From an uncultured bacterium (GTDB lineage Bacteria; Patescibacteriota; Minisyncoccia; Moranbacterales; GWC2-37-73): a stretch of 64,000 nucleotides of DNA. Location: positions 37,574 through 101,573 of the forward strand of contig CAINNK010000014.1 in the NCBI GenBank assembly GCA_903851135.1, in the 5' to 3' direction. This document shows positions 12,126-49,825 of this stretch, piece by piece (position 1 is the stretch's first letter; each line of letters opens with the position of its first letter). Both the position numbers and the translations under genes were made by a program. The notes beneath the pieces were generated by a model. It saw only the letters and a list, made by a program, of their open reading frames with translations. It was not told where the DNA came from and did not search any database.

Positions 12126-12297
12126 GACTAAAAAGTATCTTTAAATTTTTACGAGCTTGCTTGCTTTTTGGGCCTTTGAGCGACAGCTTCTCTGAGCTCT
12201 TGATTACAACTCCTAACCAAAAACATATCCTAAAAAGTAAATAAGGGAAATGAAAATTGTTAACTTAGTTTTTGAAAGTCATAAATTACGTATGACC
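12126..12297 (+). repeat. intergenic repeat family 1, copy A (~172 bp)
   Basis: Shares ordered blocks with copies at 46545-46720, 49826-49999 and (inverted, truncated) 48695-48785: TAAATTTTTACGAGCTTG, CTTTTTGGGCC, GAGCGACAG, CTCTGAG, AACAAGGGAA.TAAAAATT, ATAATTTACGYATGACCC. Confidence 0.7.
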
Positions 12298-12305
12298 CTA
12301 AAAAA

Positions 12306-12995
12306 CTATTTAACAACTTTCACTTTAACAATAAGATGATTTTTTCCTTGGACGACGCTTTGAAATTTTACTTTCTTGGCGCCCAGCAAATCAAAACCTT
12401 CACCGTCAACCAAAGTTGCAGCGTCGCGGCCGCCAATAATCAAATCTCCAATCTTCAAACGAATTTCGTCCACCAAGTCTTTTTCCAAAAGTGATGCATT
12501 TAGTTCTCCGCCGCCTTCAACTAAAATAGTTTTGATCCCTTCTTCAAAAAGAAAAAACATCATTTTTTCCAAATCGACAATTTTCTCGCCCAAGACATAA
12601 ACTTTTGCTTTTTTTCTGATTTCCTCAATTCTTCTGTCTGTGGTTTTGGCGGTCGTGAAAATCATTTTGTCACCCTCCCCTTCCGTGAAAAATTTTCCAT
12701 CCAAATCCAAACTGCCAGCATTGGAAACAACCGTAATCTTGATTGGCTCAGCACTTTTGCCAGCTCTGATTCTGTCATTTTTGCGTTTCTGTGTCTTGAG
12801 TGTCAAACTTGGATCATCTTGCCTCAATGTGTTTCCGCCAACCAAAATTGCATCCGCCTCCGCGCGCGCGTCCAAAAGCATCTCCTTGTCATTGTCAGAA
12901 GAAATGGGTATCTGCTCGCTTTTATAATTGCTAATCTTTCCATCCAGCGACATCCCCGCGCAGATGAAAACAAAAGGACGATTTTTTGATGACAT
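12306..12995 (-). CDS. RibD C-terminal domain reductase (diaminohydroxyphosphoribosylaminopyrimidine reductase / DHFR-like)
   Basis: Start taken at MSSKNRPFVFICAGMSLDGKI (avoids a 20-nt overlap with the HIT gene). Glycine-rich NADPH-binding segments GGNTL and EGGG. Confidence 0.65.
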   Translation of the reverse strand: MSSKNRPFVFICAGMSLDGKISNYKSEQIPISSDNDKEMLLDARAEADAILVGGNTLRQDDPSLTLKTQKRKNDRIRAGKSAEPIKITVVSNAGSLDLDGKFFTEGEGDKMIFTTAKTTDRRIEEIRKKAKVYVLGEKIVDLEKMMFFLFEEGIKTILVEGGGELNASLLEKDLVDEIRLKIGDLIIGGRDAATLVDGEGFDLLGAKKVKFQSVVQGKNHLIVKVKVVK

Positions 12996-16246: not shown

Positions 16247-16480
16247 TCCCCTCCGCACATTGCGCAGTGCGTAGGTAAAAGACGAGTGATGAGCGTTAAG
16301 AAATTTTGAAACGCAGTGAGGTCAGCAGACCGAACGGAGTGTAAATTTTAGCGAAGAGTGAAGTCTTTGCCCCAGCAACAAGCACGTGTCGGGAGATTTT
16401 CACCCAAAGGGTGATCATCCTCTGGATGACTTTTGTAACTTTTCTATTAAAAGAAAAGTTAACCCTGAATTTTCAACAAA

Positions 16481-16514: not shown

Positions 16515-18434
16515 TTATTTCTTTTCTTCTTCTTTCTTCTCACCTTCAACCTCCGCATCTTTTACCTCTGGTTCGCCTTCCTTCTTCGGTTCGGCGCCTT
16601 CAGCTGCAGTTCCTTCAGCTCCAGGTTGTGGTTGCGCGGCAGCGTAAAGTTTTTCACCAATCTTTTGGGCGGCTTGTGAAAGAGTTTCTGACTTGGCTTT
16701 GATGGCGCTCAAGTCTTCGCCGTTTTTCACTTTATTGAGTTCCTCAATCGCTTCTTGGACAGGTTTTTTCTCATCTTCCGTGAGTTTGTCACCAGCATCG
16801 CGCATCGCTTTTTCAGTTGAATACACAAGCGTGTCAGCCATGTTGCGAGCTTCGACAAGTTCTTTCTTAAGCTTGTCTTCTTCGGCATGCATCTCGGCAT
16901 CCTTGGTCATCTTTTCAATTTCTTCTTTGGAAAGTCCAGAGGAAGCTTCAATTTTGATTGATTGTGATTTGCCAGTCGCTTTATCCTTGGCAGTAACATT
17001 CAAAATTCCATTAGCGTCAATGTCAAATTCAACTTCAACTTGCGGAATGCCTCTTGGAGCTGGTGGAATTCCATCCAAAATAAATCTTCCAAGAGTTTTG
17101 TTGCCGGAAGCCACTTCGCGTTCGCCTTGGAGCACGTGGATTTCAACGCTAGGTTGATTGTCAGCGGCTGTTGAAAACACCTGAGATTTTGAAGTTGGAA
17201 TAGTTGTGTTGCGATTGATCAGTGGAGTTGAAATTCCTCCCATCGTTTCGATTCCGAGGGTCAGCGGGGTCACATCCAGCAAAAGCACATCTTTGACTGA
17301 ACCTTCCAACACTCCACCTTGAATGGCAGCACCGAGCGCCACAACTTCATCGGGATTGACGGTGATGTTTGGTTTTTTGCCAAAGAATTTTTCCACAGTT
17401 TGCAAAACCAGTGGCATGCGAGTCATGCCTCCCACCATCACAACTTCGTTGATGTCCGAGGTTGAAAGTTTGGCATCTGCAAGTGCCTTTTTTACTGGCT
17501 CTAATGTCTTTGTGACCAAGTCACCCACCAGTTCTTCCAGTTTGGCGCGAGTCAGTTTCATCACCAAATGTTTTGGACCTCCAGCATCAGAAGTGATGAA
17601 CGGTTGGTTGATTTCACTTTCCATCGCAGTTGAAAGTTCAATTTTGGCTTTTTCAGCTGCCTCTTTGATTCGTTGCAGTGAAAGCGGATCATTGGAAAGG
17701 TCGATGCCTTCTTGCTTTTTGAATTCAGAGATAATCCAAGCAATGATCACTTGGTCAAAGTCATCGCCACCAAGATGCGTGTCACCATTGGTTGATTTCA
17801 CTTCGACAGTATCGCCGCCAACTTCCAAAATGGAAATATCGAAAGTTCCACCACCCAAATCATAAACCGCAATTTTTTCATCTTGTTTTTTGTCAAAACC
17901 ATATGCTAATGCTGCCGCGGTTGGTTCATTGATGATACGACGGACATTGAGGCCCGCAATTTCACCAGCTTCTTTGGTGGCTTTGCGTTGAGAATCATCG
18001 AAATAGGCAGGCACAGTAATCACCGCATCTGTGATTTTTTCGCCCAATTTTTCTTCGATATCACTTTTGATTTTTTGCAAAATCATCGCGGAAATTTCTT
18101 GCGGAGTGTAGTCCTTGTCACCCATGGTCACTTTGACAGTCTCGCCAGCGTGCACGATTTTGTACGGCATCGTCTTTTCATCACGTTGAACTTCCGCGTC
18201 GTGATAAGAACGTCCAATCAAACGTTTGATGGAAAACAAAGTGTTGCCTGGATTGGTCACCCCTTGGCGTTTGGCCAAAAGTCCCACCAATCTTTCACCC
18301 GACTTTGAAATAGCCACCATTGAAGGCGTCGTGCGATTGCCTTCTTTGTTTTCAATAATTTCCGGTTTACCACCCATCACGACTGCAAAAGCCGAGTTGG
18401 TGGTTCCCAGATCAATTCCAATAATTTTACTCAT
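16515..18434 (-). CDS. dnaK: molecular chaperone DnaK (Hsp70)
   Basis: [18 protein letters not shown] and full Hsp70 architecture. ATG at 18434 preferred over the GTG at 18452 used by the ORF track. Confidence 0.95.
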
Positions 18435-18856
18435 ATTGTTTTTTAAACCCACAAATCTACAAATCAGCTACAAATCCACAAATTAAATTCGCAGACTGTT
18501 TATAAAATTGTACGTTAAATTATTTATTACTTACTTATTTTTTAAATTAATACCTCATTATGTGTCATTCTGAACTTGTTTCAGAATCTGCTTTCTTTAT
18601 TTCTTGCAGTTTTCTGTAACAGAGATGCTGAAACCCTCCAAAAGCGGACAGGCAAGTTCAGCATGACATTGTTTGTCGTCTTTTTTATATTGTTCGCTGT
18701 TTATTGTATTTTGACTATTGAGTGTGCTACAATAATTTTAGAGCTTGGCACATCGTTTGCCAGTTTTGCCCCTCGGGATTTTTGAACCATGCCCGCTGGG
18801 GCTTTTTTCTTTCCCTACGCTCTTCTCCCTAAAATCTAACATCTATAATCTAAAAT

Positions 18857-19483
18857 CTATTCCACGACCACTCTCGCCGCTCTAATAACTTTGTCTCCAA
18901 TCTTATAGCCCTTCATCATCACGGTCTTGATTTTATTTTTAAATTTCTCTTTTTCCTTCTCTTTCTCGCAATCGCAGTGGCCGCATCCACATTCCTTGTC
19001 CGCAATAGCTTCATGGAAAACCGGATCAAAGGTGTCACCAACTTTTGGCGCAATTTCCTCAATGCCATTTTCGATCAGCACCGCTTCCAGTTGCTTTTGA
19101 ATATACATAATCCCCGTCACCCAGCCGCCATCTTTCTGATCCTCGGGAATATGAGCAGTCGACATTTGAAAATTGTCCAACACTGGGATAATCTGCAAAA
19201 TGATGTTTTGCGTGGCATATTTGATCAAATCTTTTTGCGACTCCGCCTGCATGCGCTTGTAATTTTCAAAATCAGCTTGCGTCCGTTTCCAGCCTGCCAA
19301 ATTTTCTTTGGCCTGTTTTTCAAAATTTGTTTCACCGCTTTCTGCCTCATCGGCAGATAAGTCTGCTTCATCGGCAGATAAATCTTCGGTAACTTCATTT
19401 TCAACATCAACCACCTCTTCAATCTTCTCTTTCTCGGCGATGTCTTTTTCCAATTCCTCTTTTTCCTTTGTTTGTTTTGTCAT
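18857..19483 (-). CDS. grpE: nucleotide exchange factor GrpE (with acidic N-terminal repeat and Cys-rich C-terminal insertion)
   Basis: GrpE core ...NLAGWKRTQADFENYKRM...IPVLDNF...; insertion ECGCGHCDCEKEKEKEK before the terminal beta-domain. Confidence 0.9.
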   Translation of the reverse strand: MTKQTKEKEELEKDIAEKEKIEEVVDVENEVTEDLSADEADLSADEAESGETNFEKQAKENLAGWKRTQADFENYKRMQAESQKDLIKYATQNIILQIIPVLDNFQMSTAHIPEDQKDGGWVTGIMYIQKQLEAVLIENGIEEIAPKVGDTFDPVFHEAIADKECGCGHCDCEKEKEKEKFKNKIKTVMMKGYKIGDKVIRAARVVVE

Positions 19484-19640
19484 AAAATTTTTTATTCCTA
19501 CGAAATTACAAAATTATACAAAAATACAAAAACTTGCAAACTTACTTTAGGTCTAGCTGTGAACTAGCAACCGTGAACTGTAAACAATCTTGCACCCTAA
19601 CAATATAACAATTTAGCAATGTAACAATTTCAAATTTTTT

Positions 19641-20399
19641 CTAAAAAACTACAAAACTAATGCTTGATAAGCTAATCACTATTACTATTGAAGCACCAAG
19701 GAGCTTCTTCACATATTCAAGCATGGATTTGTTCTTGGCATATTCCATTCTTTTTGGACCAATCAGCGCCAGAATGCCTTTCTCGCCGGAACTGAGTTTA
19801 TATGGTGACACAATCATGGAACAATTTGAAGCGGCTTCAATAGGATTTTCCTGACCAATAAAGATTCTGGTCTCGCCTTCTTTCATGTTCTTGGTTAGCT
19901 GATCAAATTTTTCGTCGACATAGTCCAACATTTCAACCAGGCGACACATTTCATCCAATTCTTTGAACTCTGGTTCTTCCATGAGTTCCCGCATGCCGAA
20001 ATCAGAAAATTCATCGTTGTCAATCAAGCCACTGATGGCAAAATTTCCACTGACATGTGAAAGAAGTTTGGCCGTCGTGCGAGTCAGACGAGTGTTCTGG
20101 GCTTTCAGTTTCAAAAATTCCCGCTGCATTTTTTGTTGCTCATCCTTGGAAAGAATTTTGTCTTTCATCACTTCTTCCACAAAATAGCGATAACCTTGAT
20201 CAGTTGGGATTCGACCAGCGCTGATGTGCGGTTGATAGAGATAGCCATCTTCTTCCAAAGTGGTCATGTCGTTGCGGATGGTGGCGGGGCTGACTTTGAA
20301 TTTATATTTCCCAACCAAAATCTGCGAGCCAACTGGCACTGCTGTTTGGGTGTATTCCTCAATCACCGCCGCTAAAATTTTTTGTTGCCTTTCGTTCAT
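19641..20399 (-). CDS. hrcA: heat-inducible transcription repressor HrcA (short form, 252 aa)
   Basis: N-terminal wHTH MNERQQKILAAVIEEYTQTAVPVGSQ typical of HrcA; hrcA-grpE-dnaK order. Confidence 0.85.
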   Translation of the reverse strand: MNERQQKILAAVIEEYTQTAVPVGSQILVGKYKFKVSPATIRNDMTTLEEDGYLYQPHISAGRIPTDQGYRYFVEEVMKDKILSKDEQQKMQREFLKLKAQNTRLTRTTAKLLSHVSGNFAISGLIDNDEFSDFGMRELMEEPEFKELDEMCRLVEMLDYVDEKFDQLTKNMKEGETRIFIGQENPIEAASNCSMIVSPYKLSSGEKGILALIGPKRMEYAKNKSMLEYVKKLLGASIVIVISLSSISFVVF

Positions 20400-20526
20400 A
20401 ATATTGCCGATGCGAAACTACGAATAAAATTCGAATCTACGAATAAAATTTTACATAAATCAATCACGTGTAATCAGTTTAATCAGAAACTAATCAGTGG
20501 TTTGTATTTTTATTATATATTATGTG

Positions 20527-20553
20527 TTAGCAGTCGTCAAGTCCGAGTGCTAA
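20527..20553. promoter_or_regulatory. CIRCE operator (HrcA binding site)
   Basis: TTAGCAGTC-GTCAAGTCC-GAGTGCTAA versus consensus TTAGCACTC-N9-GAGTGCTAA (1 mismatch); about 130 bp upstream of the hrcA start. Confidence 0.8.
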
Positions 20554-20603
20554 CTGCTTAAAATACTACGTCTTATTTTAAATTTTATTGCATTAAAAAA
20601 TAT

Positions 20604-20926
20604 CCGTCATTGCGAGGATTTTTGTACTCGAAAATCCGAAGCAATCCAGGATTTTATAAAGTCCTGGATTGCTATGCATGATTACATGCTCGCAAAGACG
20701 TTATAAAAAAAGATTTTGTCATTCCCGACAGCAGCCTGTCCGCCTTTAGAGGAATCGGGAATCCAGACCCGTATTTTATATCCCTTGCATTAATGCATAA
20801 CCCAGATTCCCGTTTTCACGGGAATGACATAATATAATAAAATTTTCCCATAAAAAAAGCCTGGGCTTTAATAAAGTCAGACTTTGAAATTTTTCAATTA
20901 AGGTCGCACCGTTGCGACCTTAATTG
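20604..20926. ncRNA. candidate structured RNA / hairpin cluster (unclassified)
   Basis: Closing helix GTCATTGCGAG(20606-16)/CTCGCAAAGAC(20689-99) encloses three hairpins including an 11-bp stem GCAATCCAGGA/TCCTGGATTGC. Repeated ATTCCCGA..TCGGGAAT and ATTCCCG..CGGGAAT hairpins; 12-nt palindrome TGCATTAATGCA; perfect 14-bp stem CAATTAAGGTCGCA/TGCGACCTTAATTG (20895-20926). No ORF. Confidence 0.3.
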
Positions 20927-20945
20927 AGTTGAGAAAAAAACATTT

Positions 20946-21851
20946 TTACCTGAGTGCTTGTTCAAGTGCTGTTCCGGCATCGGTCTTGCTGTCACGATAT
21001 TTCTTGATTAAAGCAACATAACCTGAAAGTCCATATTCTTCAGCAAAGGAGCCCTTAATCTGCCGAGAACCAGCAATAACAACTGCTCCTGCAGGAATGA
21101 TAAGGGGATTTTCTTTTGTCCCTTTGTAGATTTTTGCCTCGACAAGGTCGTAAACAGTTATTGACCTATTCAACATGACCCCAGTACCGATAACCGACCG
21201 CTCCTTGACAATAGTGCCTTCGTAGATACCGCAGTTGCCTCCCACCATGACATCATCCTCGATGATGACCGGCATGGCGCCTATCGGTTCGAGCACACCC
21301 CCGACCTGAACGCCGGCCGAAAGATGACACTTCTTGCCAACTTGGGCGCAGCTTCCGACAAGGGCATGAGAATCAATCATGGTGCCTTCATCAACATAGG
21401 CTCCCACATTAACATAGGCCGGCGGCATCATCACAACCCCGGAAGCCAGATATGAACCGTCGCGAACTGCCGATCCTCCGGGAACAATGCGGACATTATC
21501 TGCCGGAATGAATTTTTTAAGTGGCCAGGTATCCTTGTCAAAAAACTCCCAACCTAAGGCCTCCTGTGAAGGGAAAGCTCCCAACCCAAAAAAAATCATG
21601 TATTCCCGAAGCCTGCCAAGTCGCATACCGAGCAGAATCCCTTCCTTAACCCAAGCATTAACTACCCAGTCATCACCCCGCTTTTCAGCAGCCCGAATTT
21701 TTCCTTCATTTAACAATTTTTTGAAATGGTCAAAATCACTCCGCGCCTCTGCATAAGTTTCAGGTCTACGCAAATCATCTACCGTAAGTTTTGAGTGATT
21801 AATGATGGATTGCTTAATAAGACCAATAGCAAAATCCAAGCCTGTATTCAT
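20946..21851 (-). CDS. dapD: 2,3,4,5-tetrahydropyridine-2,6-dicarboxylate N-succinyltransferase
   Basis: Hexapeptide-repeat block [43 protein letters not shown]...IIEDD is near-identical in pattern to E. coli DapD. Confidence 0.85.
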
Positions 21852-23331: not shown

Positions 23332-24117
23332 TTATTTTTTTTGTAAACTCAGTTTTGATTCTATAAAATCCTTAAACCCAAGCACCCGGGAAACCTGATC
23401 AACTTGGATCAAAAACGGCTCCACATCTTTAGCTAGAAAAGCAAAATCAAACTCTTCACAACGTGCTAACATTTTTTCACTAAATTCAGCTCTTGAAAGA
23501 TTTAGGGTTTTTTCAATATAAGCAAAATCTGGCTGAGTTTTGCCATAAAGATAACTGACATCATAAAAATCTCTTCCCTTTTCTCTTTTGCGACCAAGAA
23601 TCGCCATCATTTTTTGCGCAAGCAATACTTCGATGGGATTAACTAAAATATCCCGATAGATGTCAAATTTGTTCAAGGTAAGAACCTGGGGCTGGAACAA
23701 TTTTTCTTTTTTGACAGTGTCGATTCGCACAAGAATTTTTTCATTCGGTGCCGAACCAAGATTGGCTTCCTGAAGAATGTGAGGAAATTTTATATAGCAA
23801 TGATATGCGCCCTTTTCAATCAAACGCGCTTCCATAGCAAAACCCTTAATTTTCATATCATCAACAACTTCATTCATCAGTTCTTGAAATTCATCAAAAG
23901 ATAGTCCAAAATTATCAAAGTCCAAGTCTTCCGAAAAACGATTTCCACCGAAGGCAATTCGAATCGCCGTGCCACCAATAAAACTTAGCTGCGCGCTTTT
24001 CTTTTGCTTAAAAATCGAATCAAGAATTTCATATTGCAAATATTCCACCAAAATACTTTTTGAAGGATTACTTTTAGAATCAGTATAATATTTTTTCAAT
24101 TGATCAAAGGTTAGCAT
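23332..24117 (-). CDS. AbiEii/AbiGii-family nucleotidyltransferase toxin (type IV TA / abortive infection)
   Basis: 261 aa; DUF1814 signature SFIGGTAIRIAFGGNRFSEDLDF. Confidence 0.75.
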   Translation of the reverse strand: MLTFDQLKKYYTDSKSNPSKSILVEYLQYEILDSIFKQKKSAQLSFIGGTAIRIAFGGNRFSEDLDFDNFGLSFDEFQELMNEVVDDMKIKGFAMEARLIEKGAYHCYIKFPHILQEANLGSAPNEKILVRIDTVKKEKLFQPQVLTLNKFDIYRDILVNPIEVLLAQKMMAILGRKREKGRDFYDVSYLYGKTQPDFAYIEKTLNLSRAEFSEKMLARCEEFDFAFLAKDVEPFLIQVDQVSRVLGFKDFIESKLSLQKK

Positions 24118-46447: not shown

Positions 46448-46544
46448 CAAGACAAGAAAAAATAGCATCATTGGAATGCTATTTTTTCTTGCAATTTTTC
46501 AAGCTTTCAAATAAGTATTAGATTATAAGCAATTCACGGCTTCA

Positions 46545-46720
46545 GCTAAAGATTGCCTCTAAATTTTTACGAACTTGTTTGATTTTTAGACCATTGAAGC
46601 GACAGTTTCTCTGAGTCATTGGCCATTGATTTCGGCCAAGAGGAGCGCGCCCAAAAATTAAACAAGGGAAGTAAAAATTTCTAATTTAGTTTTCGAGAAT
46701 CATAATTTACGCATGACCCC
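46545..46720 (+). repeat. intergenic repeat family 1, copy B
   Basis: See copy A; adds an AGCGCGCCCAAAAA block shared with copy C. Confidence 0.7.
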
Positions 46721-46738
46721 GAGTATTACTCAAAAACC

Positions 46739-48628: not shown

Positions 48629-48660
48629 AGCAAATTCAAACTTAAAAAGTGACTTAGAAT

Positions 48661-48785
48661 TTTTACAAGCTTGCATCCTTTTTTGAGCACGCACTTAGCC
48701 TAAGACTATGACTAAGCGCTCTGAATCGCTGTCGCTCATATGGCCAAAAAAGAATGCAAGCTTGTAAAAATGTTGCTGAAAAGAA
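48661..48785 (-). repeat. intergenic repeat family 1, copy D (inverted, truncated; bounded by 16-bp inverted repeat)
   Basis: Reverse complement ATTTTTACAAGCTTGCATTCTTTTTTGGCC.TGAGCGACAGCG..CAGAGCG matches blocks 1-4. TTTTACAAGCTTGCAT (48661-76) and ATGCAAGCTTGTAAAA (48758-73) are inverted copies. Confidence 0.55.
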
Positions 48786-49770: not shown

Positions 49771-49825
49771 AGGGTTAAATTAAAAAATGTAAGCTTTCAT
49801 TGGATCATACTTAATTTATAGTTCT

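Follow-up and report, generated by a model that had tools for sequence, protein, structure and literature searches.

What fills the gap between dapD and the promoter of hrcA in an uncultured member of the Patescibacteriota (assembly GCA_903851135.1, contig CAINNK010000014.1)? The stretch analyzed here, termed the window, comprises 64 kb with an overall GC content of 37.7%, and the block in question, at positions 20560-20940, is noncoding and dense in hairpins. A first-pass annotation, made from the letters alone, had proposed either a structured noncoding RNA (ncRNA) or a cluster akin to repetitive extragenic palindromes (REPs), rather than a simple terminator. The block is best explained, with a probability of roughly 80%, as a terminator module of dapD followed by four hairpin repeats that carry CGTC or TGTC tags and that we read as targets of Ssn-type nucleases, i.e., relatives of the GIY-YIG nuclease SsnA of Neisseria meningitidis.

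Anatomy of the repeat units

Positions 20605-20829 hold four repeat units, organized in two inverted pairs (A and B), as follows.

20605..20648, plus strand: A-left, CGTC-ATTGC-GA-(GGATTTT TGTACTCG AAAATCC)-GAA-GCAAT-CCA, from folding
20649..20664, no strand: spacer of pair A, 16 nt, with complementary ends GGA/TCC
20665..20700, minus strand: A-right, CGTC-TTTGC-GA-(GCATG TAAT CATGC)-ATA-GCAAT-CCA, from folding
20717..20765, plus strand: B-left, TGTC-ATTCCCGA-(26-nt loop)-TCGGGAAT-CCA, with an 8-bp stem; lineage-specific
20766..20801, no strand: spacer of pair B, 36 nt, holding the palindrome TGCATTAATGCA at 20786-20797
20802..20829, minus strand: B-right, TGTC-ATTCCCGT-GAAA-ACGGGAAT-CTGG, with an 8-bp stem and a 4-nt loop, of the CGTC-1/dRS3-NTS type

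In both pairs the tags face outward, with CGTC at 20605 and (minus strand) 20700, and TGTC at 20717 and (minus strand) 20829. Pair A measures about 96 bp and has terminal inverted repeats of 11-12 nt, while pair B measures 113 bp and has inverted termini of 10-11 nt. When folded as single units, each repeat leaves its 4-nt tag and 3-nt tail unpaired; the tail reads CCA in all units but B-right, where it is CTG. The stem begins with AT in three units and with TT in A-right. All four units carry GTC immediately 5' of the palindrome and C immediately 3' of it. The A units are built of a 5-bp stem, ATTGC/GCAAT (its first pair broken in A-right), an internal loop, GA/GAA, and a second, variable hairpin. 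B-left shares its stem type with B-right, and its loop is atypically large.

All of the stems previously listed for this block are present at their assigned positions. These include the inner hairpins GGATTTT/AAAATCC, a perfect 11-bp GCAATCCAGGA/TCCTGGATTGC and GCATG/CATGC, the two hairpins with the same stem (ATTCCCGA..TCGGGAAT at 20721-20762 and ATTCCCG..CGGGAAT at 20806-20825) and the 12-nt palindrome TGCATTAATGCA. The proposed 11-nt closing helix, GTCATTGCGAG (20606-20616) with CTCGCAAAGAC (20689-20699), is paired at 10 of its 11 positions, with one A.A mismatch, and is lengthened to 20605/20700 by a flanking C-G pair. The "closed multi-stem domain" that this helix was thought to delimit (20606-20699) is, however, nothing other than two repeat units facing each other. 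The long-range pairing described as an alternative structure within 20718-20828, GTCATTCCCG (20718-20727) with CGGGAATGAC (20819-20828), exists and likewise represents two facing units. No open reading frame (ORF) of 30 or more amino acids lies inside 20562-20893, in agreement with the noncoding designation. The raised GC content also ascribed to the block is genuine with respect to the adjoining spacer (0.40-0.41 at 20600-20800 versus 0.26-0.31), but equals that of coding DNA (0.40-0.45).

Relationship to published repeat families

Di Nocera et al. (2013; PMC3733652; BMC Genomics 14:522) defined the CGTC REPs by a terminal CGTC tag (or TGTC/CCTC), stems of 8-9 bp starting with AT, loops of 4-5 nt with exceptions in length, and a CCA tail. 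These repeats occur mainly as inverted dimers with spacers of 20-100 bp, some of which hold small stem-loops, and were reported from five phyla, including the Chlorobi (Chlorobaculum parvum and Chlorobium chlorochromatii). According to the same study, REPs generally lie 3' of genes, between co-directional or convergent genes. The window units share with the CGTC REPs the unpaired CGTC/TGTC tag (4 of 4 units), the AT-starting stem (3 of 4), the CCA-type tail, the inverted pairing and short spacers with possible stem-loops; they are also extragenic, downstream of a gene and between co-directional genes. The spacing agrees for pair B (36 nt) and is slightly short for pair A (16 nt). The published stem and loop dimensions are found exactly in B-right only. 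The A units differ in their 5-bp stem, conserved internal loop and second variable hairpin, as does B-left in its 26-nt loop; for the A type, this comparison was made with the text descriptions of the four published families rather than with consensus sequences.

B-right has the precise format of family CGTC-1, with its 8-bp stem ATTCCCGN and 4-nt loop. CGTC-1 corresponds to dRS3 of Neisseria and RPE-6 of Rickettsia, and its intragenic copies encode the peptides VIPAKAGI and DSRFRGND, the translations of GTCATTCCCGCGAAAGCGGGAATC (Di Nocera et al. 2013, PMC3733652). The corresponding translation of B-right is VIPVKTGI.

A second body of work links this type of repeat to a nuclease. The Neisseria repeat NTS, CGTCATTCCCGCGMAVGCGGGAATCYRG, is bound and cut by SsnA, a 94-aa single-domain GIY-YIG nuclease (cd10448), only as single-stranded DNA; cutting needs the three bases 5' of the palindrome, and binding needs the C 3' of the palindrome (Chenal et al. 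2025; PMC11893778; Nat Commun 16:2388). The same authors found that SsnA reduces transformation by NTS-bearing DNA, and that ssn genes across bacteria are typically bracketed by their own hairpin repeats (SRMs). Their SRM pattern, HGTCWYN(0-2)YYVSBRHN(0-5)WNVSBRGN(0-2)RNCYNB, has a single match in the window, namely B-right (20802-20829), where 0.1 would be expected by chance. B-right agrees with the NTS consensus at 25 of 28 positions, and two of the three differences form a compensatory pair. Moreover, the GTC and C positions that are critical in Neisseria are kept in all four units. Because their layout matches that of the NTS bound and cut by SsnA, we take the four units to be putative Ssn-type target hairpins, although the window contains no ssn gene and the A-type units fall outside the SRM pattern.

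Dispersal of the A-type family

Species-representative genomes were searched with a pattern made of the termini of pair A only, GTCATTGCGAG-N45-75-CTCGCAAWGAC, for which about one chance match was estimated. At least 120 stretches matched. The matches listed came from the Alpha-, Gamma- and Deltaproteobacteria, Bacteroidota, Patescibacteria, Chloroflexi, Planctomycetota, Cyanobacteria and Zixibacteria, with Bradyrhizobium and sphingomonads being numerous among them. From these stretches 123 elements were extracted, which formed the basis of the family counts and of a covariance model. The elements have common internal boxes, CGAAGCAATCCAG ... CTGGATTGCTTCG, that lie outside the search pattern, with variable hairpins between them, and window pair A shows the same layout. 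Of the 123 elements, 83 have C and 33 have T before GTC, and CCA was the commonest tail after GCAAT (60/113). The covariance model (123 members) identified positions 20605-20700 on either strand, with 51.7 bits and E = 1e-11, as its sole match in the window.

Comparison loci, designated by L-numbers, were fetched from genome and metagenome contigs. Two of these represent related lineages: L010, in which DapD is 78% identical and the synteny of dapD and hrcA is retained, and L137, with approximately 88% nucleotide identity across hrcA and dnaK. The covariance model scored the L010 orthologue of pair A at 24.4 bits and revealed a second, paralogous A-type copy in the hrcA-grpE spacer of L010. 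An A-to-T change (CTCGCAAAGAC) was considered as a mark of orthology between the window and L010, and was dropped, as this variant is a subfamily feature at many loci.

A pattern for the A-right subtype, ATRATTACATNCTCRCAAAGAC, retrieved 26 metagenome stretches. L137 holds the orthologue of pair A, and the others are apparently different loci, a few of which occur on more than one contig. The units appear there singly, in inverted pairs formed with either of two kinds of partner, and in tandem arrays (L149 and L156). More than 15 other loci, all on lake metagenome contigs, carried units nearly identical to A-right. A 44-nt copy of A-left, exact except for the first base of the tag (TGTC), forms a singleton at L150 7248-7291, 58 nt past an unrelated gene, with another pair 600 nt away. 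Among the copies the inner stems covary (GGATTTT/AAAATCC, GCATTTC/GAAATGC, AGATTT/AAATCT), while the loop TGTACTCG is constant. B-type units recur as well in low-GC lake contigs, and one of them, at L139 475-497, is identical to B-right. The proposal of a REP-like cluster is thus borne out for 20605-20829 by the tags, the inverted pairs, a family extending over many phyla and identical units at unrelated loci.

In tandem arrays at L149 6800-8840, L148 1970-2540 and L156 60-430, A-type units alternate with other short repeats, at a GC content of about 0.5. At L149 and L148 the arrays repeat every 315 bp, and at L156 every 123 bp or so. The neisserial intergenic mosaic elements (NIMEs) consist of repeat units bounded by dRS3. 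With NIMEs and Correia elements, the A-type arrays of L149 and L156 share the arrangement of short units bounded by palindromes of the type ATTCCC-N8-GGGAAT; the window differs in having two pairs and no array.

Another dispersed element, of about 200 nt (16248-16462), lies downstream of dnaK and has no Rfam match at gathering score. An 83-nt part of it is 98.8% identical to L150 7387-7468, an unrelated locus, and in L139 and L134 A-type units directly adjoin its end (TTTTGTAACTTTTCTATTAAAAGAAAAGTTAA).

Folding of the block and the case for an RNA

Folding of the whole block gives -123 kcal/mol for the plus strand, compared with -71 +/- 5.6 for shuffled sequences (z -9.3), and -126 versus -80 kcal/mol for the minus strand (z -8.4). 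In neither case was any of 100 shuffles as stable as the block. The near-equal stability of the two strands speaks for palindromic DNA and against an RNA made from one strand.

The very low folding energy could in itself speak for a locus-specific ncRNA, either a small RNA or a cis-element of hrcA or dapD, with 20606-20699 as its functional fold. The architecture is, in addition, partly kept in L010 with altered inner hairpins, and a weak sigma-70-like match (9/12) has the end of A as its -35 element. We nevertheless regard such an RNA as very improbable. Both strands fold equally well, promoter-like sites are no commoner than in shuffles, and no predicted transcription unit includes the block, which lies between the dapD terminator and the hrcA promoter. 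The supposed domain consists of two units that occur separately elsewhere, as singletons (L150, L139) or in arrays (L149, L156), and the family is distributed over many phyla in unrelated contexts. An Rfam scan of the block, which had been suggested as a check, yielded no family at gathering score, and at E <= 10 the region gave only sub-threshold noise, the best match being FtrB (21.5 versus 66 bits needed), which touches the ATTCCCG hairpin. At gathering score the whole window contains three tRNAs only, and 18 canonical loci of the A family gave no Rfam match. Literature searches with raw sequence words of the block returned unrelated primers or nothing.

Association with small GIY-YIG nuclease genes

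A GIY-YIG regular expression led to a gene at L157 (the same locus as L155) whose 99-aa product consists of a single GIY-YIG domain (Pfam E = 1e-13) and has thousands of homologues of 95-100 aa. The gene is bracketed by A-type units with their tags outward, and the unit directly upstream of it belongs to the A-right subtype of the window. Seven further loci were then chosen by the protein alone, from Patescibacteria, Thiobacillus, a site beside a diversity-generating retroelement, and others. In seven of seven, A-type units were present on both sides, within 170 nt. Altogether, A-type units flank a single-domain GIY-YIG gene of about 97 aa (95-99 aa) at 8 of 8 loci. By sequence, B-right is of the NTS/SRM type, and the two A units are of a type that occurs across the bacteria and flanks small GIY-YIG genes.

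The resemblance to the NTS/SRM-SsnA system thus extends to the "repeat - ssn - repeat" architecture, with tags outward around genes of about 97 aa; the likeness is one of sequence, and the flanked protein is a candidate Ssn-like nuclease. In searches on the GIY-YIG question, tblastn with E. coli YhbQ gave weak matches only, and a PDB sequence search gave weak UPF0213 matches only.

In Thiobacillus (L162/L163, 1458-1843), a cassette consisting of an A unit, a GIY-YIG gene and an inverted A unit is inserted between sdhA and sdhB, which argues for mobility of the cassette, to judge from its placement. The upstream A unit is separated from the start codon by 12 nt, so that its hairpin lies in the 5' leader of the gene. 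At L164-L167 (~530-3260), a 98-aa GIY-YIG (Ssn-like) gene separates bAvd, the accessory gene of a diversity-generating retroelement, from the reverse transcriptase, and is surrounded by several A-type units. This 98-aa protein was present on 160 contigs, the four examined belonging to lake-metagenome assemblies and one metagenome-assembled genome.

Inverted pairs of the kind seen in window A share the architecture of the cassette minus its gene. The sizes and inverted termini of the pairs (about 96 bp with 11-12 nt in A, 113 bp with 10-11 nt in B) would also fit a classical miniature inverted-repeat transposable element (MITE), derived from an insertion sequence with a DDE transposase, or a REPIN, an inverted REP pair mobilized by a REP-associated tyrosine transposase (RAYT) of the IS200/IS605 type. 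We find either origin hardly credible. The flanks, ATATC/TTATA for A and GATTT/TAATA for B, show no target-site duplication; single units and arrays in the same orientation are the behavior of REPs; the gene found between such units encodes a GIY-YIG nuclease; and no transposase family recurs near 120 family loci (ORFs of at least 120 aa, 8-kb flanks). The tag is CGTC/TGTC and not the GTAG of RAYT-associated REPs, and a transposase dedicated or linked to CGTC REPs was not found by Di Nocera et al. (2013, PMC3733652). The Coxiella elements QMITE1/2 were also considered; QMITE2 carries a GTAG REP and represents a different family.

The E. coli REPs, with their mosaic clusters (bacterial interspersed mosaic elements, BIMEs), and the REPIN-RAYT systems nevertheless resemble the present repeats in being short extragenic palindromes, whose inverted pairs fold separately or as one long hairpin, in clustering in the 3' regions of genes and in having a proposed single-copy maintaining gene. 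BIMEs bind gyrase, integration host factor and DNA polymerase I. The differences reside in the tag (GTAG versus CGTC) and in the enzyme, an HUH tyrosine transposase as opposed to a GIY-YIG nuclease.

Positions 20605-20829 constitute a small BIME-like cluster in the gap between terminator and promoter, with two inverted pairs whose tags face outward. Each unit presents an unpaired (C/T)GTC tag, a hairpin and, right after it, a C, which in three units is the start of CCA. Under the interpretation as Ssn-type targets, the inverted pairs would be miniature versions of the "repeat - ssn gene - repeat" cassette that lack the gene, and may well derive from such cassettes. The repeats would spread or persist as selfish or domesticated DNA and would act at the DNA level upon strand unwinding, e.g., in uptake, replication or repair. 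They would be tolerated in this gap since insertions there are presumably harmless. By analogy with SsnA, an Ssn homologue of this organism may cut these particular sites.

More tentatively, the A-type unit, CGTC-ATTGC-GA-(variable hairpin)-GAA-GCAAT-CCA, could represent a distinct, pan-bacterial class of Ssn targets that the SRM pattern misses, with its own subfamily of GIY-YIG proteins of about 97 aa, and pairs such as 20605-20700 could be miniature cassettes. We consider this a possibility worth stating, while leaning slightly against it. Such a class may amount to a replicator of the REPIN/RAYT kind in which a GIY-YIG single-strand nuclease takes the place of the tyrosine transposase as the driving enzyme.

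The dapD terminator module and the hrcA promoter

The remaining part of the block and its flanking features on the minus strand are given below.

20894..20927, minus strand: T1, perfect hairpin of 14-15 bp, 19 nt past the dapD stop, from folding
20852..20886, minus strand: T2, branched hairpin followed by U7, beginning 8 nt downstream of T1, from folding
20946-21851, minus strand: dapD, THDPS_N_2 and hexapeptide repeats (Pfam)
20540..20512, minus strand: hrcA promoter, TTGACG-17-TATAAT, the best sigma-70-type match (11/12 consensus positions)
20527-20555: CIRCE (controlling inverted repeat of chaperone expression), the operator, enclosing the -35 element of the hrcA promoter
19641-20399, minus strand: hrcA, 252 aa (Pfam HrcA)
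18857-19483, minus strand: grpE (Pfam)
16515-18452, minus strand: dnaK (Pfam)

The perfect 14-bp stem at 20895-20926 reported previously was recovered, folding as 15 bp, and neither strand has a U-run immediately behind it. T2 is an addition to the list of the first-pass annotation. In both L010 and L137 the position of T1 is occupied by a different hairpin, ATGCCACG/CGTGGCAT, and that of T2 by a 9-bp hairpin that includes three G.U pairs and precedes a U8 run; the two positions are thus kept in two related lineages with changed sequence. The G.U pairs make the structure at the T2 position strand-specific. Tested as a dispersed repeat, T1 was found in none of the fetched loci except the orthologues. 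T2 has the form of an intrinsic terminator, with a hairpin immediately followed by a U-run, whereas T1 alone does not. A simple terminator scan called no terminator in the region, and T2 was probably missed on account of its branched hairpin and of a loop above the 8-nt limit of the scan.

Most simply, 20852-20927 (T1 plus T2) is the dapD terminator module on the minus strand. On the model of intrinsic termination, T2 is probably the end of the dapD transcript, and T1 is probably a hairpin that protects its 3' end or causes pausing. The judgment "rather than a simple terminator" therefore holds for the repeats and fails for the 3' part of the block, where the 14-bp stem and the next hairpin with its U7 make up this module. 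From the position of the promoter and CIRCE and the minus-strand order of the genes, it follows that the block sits 3' of dapD and 5' of the hrcA promoter; the hrcA-side end of the repeat cluster is about 65 nt upstream of the hrcA -35 element. The CIRCE site has one mismatch relative to the consensus, TTAGCACTC-N9-GAGTGCTAA. The arrangement of promoter and CIRCE is conserved in L010 and L137.

Comparison of the orthologous spacers showed that pair A and the positions of T1 and T2 are kept in both related lineages and that pair B is not: its place is taken in both L010 and L137 by one hairpin without a tag. No equivalent of B-left was found in either, and B-left is accordingly designated lineage-specific. 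Pair A, together with the following GGATATTTTTT, is kept beside the hrcA promoter in three lineages (window, L137 and L010); a dapD homologue was looked for upstream in L137 and not found.

This position raises the question of whether the repeats were co-opted, with T1/T2, as an insulator, in the form of minus-strand back-up terminators or exonuclease barriers that would block read-through from dapD into the HrcA/CIRCE-controlled hrcA-grpE-dnaK operon. This would be an added local role, not an alternative identity, and we judge it unlikely. T-runs do follow each pair on the gene strand, in GACA-AAATC-T7 (B) and GACG-GATA-T6 (A), but they begin 4-5 nt past the stems, which is a poor geometry for intrinsic termination. 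Such runs are commonplace in a spacer of 26-31% GC, and other copies of these units lack them. The persistence of pair A beside the promoter, and two G.U-compatible substitutions in L010 that keep pairing on the minus strand only, would be in keeping with an insulator; the conservation of A may, however, mirror the subfamily consensus, as the L010 paralogue has the same inner hairpins, and pair B is not conserved. The general location of REPs 3' of genes is likewise compatible with this role, as is the orientation of genes around the 123 elements (17 convergent versus 8 divergent), a crude count from naive ORF calling in which 38 elements lay inside probably spurious ORFs. T2, upstream of the repeats, already resembles a competent terminator. 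Any effect of the repeats on the expression of dapD or hrcA would thus be additional to their proposed identity as Ssn-type targets.

Observations at odds with the proposed Ssn-type targets

The identification of the four units as nuclease targets has to be weighed against several observations that do not favor it. The stem of the A units is interrupted, and hence misses the 8-9 bp of the published CGTC families. The SRM pattern has no match in A-left, A-right or B-left, nor in any of the 123 A-type pairs (0/123). B-left alone, with its 26-nt loop, folds no better than shuffles (z -0.7). In the 64-kb window neither repeat searches nor the covariance model detected further copies of A or B, and tblastn (E <= 1) detected no Ssn-like nuclease gene. 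REP-rich genomes typically contain hundreds of copies, as opposed to one cluster per 64 kb here, and the host genome may be repeat-poor and the four units relics. No nuclease or transposase recurred in the 8-kb flanks of 120 family loci, where only generic families were met, in a survey of ORFs of at least 120 aa, to which genes of Ssn size are invisible. Finally, the retention of pair A beside the hrcA promoter in three lineages could reflect a local function rather than passive persistence.

Additional features of the locus and window

An identical DapD protein is encoded on lake-metagenome contigs, and the closest named relatives of DapD are those of Chlorobium, Chlorobaculum and Chlorobiaceae (64-71% identity). 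Green sulfur bacteria are not known to use NTS-type sites. The gene content directly upstream of dapD differs among relatives, which suggests a variable region, and an AbiEii toxin gene is located beside the neighbors of dapD. HrcA is short, at 252 aa in the window and equal length in L010. The -35 hexamer of its promoter lies within the 9-nt spacer of CIRCE, such that binding of the repressor would occlude the promoter directly.

A tandem short word (ATTCGTAG/TTTGTAG; pattern TTYGTAGWTTYGTA) occurs in the last ~60 nt before the starts of hrcA, grpE and dnaK, with its copies distributed as follows.

20411-20444, minus strand: short-word copies before hrcA
19499-19530, minus strand: short-word copies before grpE
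18450-18482, minus strand: short-word copies before dnaK
51235-51281 and 57715-57757, also 15706 and 44781: short-word copies elsewhere

The word ATTCGTAG was counted 7 times in the window versus 0.9 expected, and the double word 10 times versus 0.25 expected. It is also found before a glycosyltransferase gene and, in the opposite orientation, beside a DUF1003 gene. The motif precedes genes in L150 and L010 too, and is not confined to heat-shock genes. It may serve the lineage as a leader motif, a translation enhancer or an operator.

At 9553-9646, a 46-nt inverted repeat with 76% complementarity contains a second, oppositely oriented copy of the 3' part of a tRNA gene (9625-9697), and may be the scar of an integrated element. 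Diverged paralogous blocks were observed in and around genes at 12128-12306, 46517-46727, 48642-48771 and 49799-50011, at 23261-23320/24778-24837 and at 23332-24117.

Implications

Both types of repeat fall within a published superfamily, and the link to a nuclease was published in 2025. What may prove new, on a cautious estimate that stops somewhat short of expectation, is that the ATTGCGAG...GCAATCC type is tied to Ssn-like genes and yet invisible to the published SRM pattern. The appropriate annotation of the spacer is a dapD terminator plus a REP/Ssn-motif cluster, in place of a candidate RNA regulator of the heat-shock operon. The window offers a clean example of two subtypes of CGTC-tagged repeats side by side. 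The ATTGCGAG...GCAATCC subtype occurs in many phyla, and brackets a small GIY-YIG gene at each protein-centered locus examined. If the A type does form its own class of Ssn targets, it would supply the mobilizing or maintaining gene that was missing for the CGTC REPs in Di Nocera et al. If the pairing holds genome-wide, the 2025 discovery of Ssn would be extended to repeats that the pattern does not detect, and would provide new pairs of nuclease and site for single-stranded-DNA tools.

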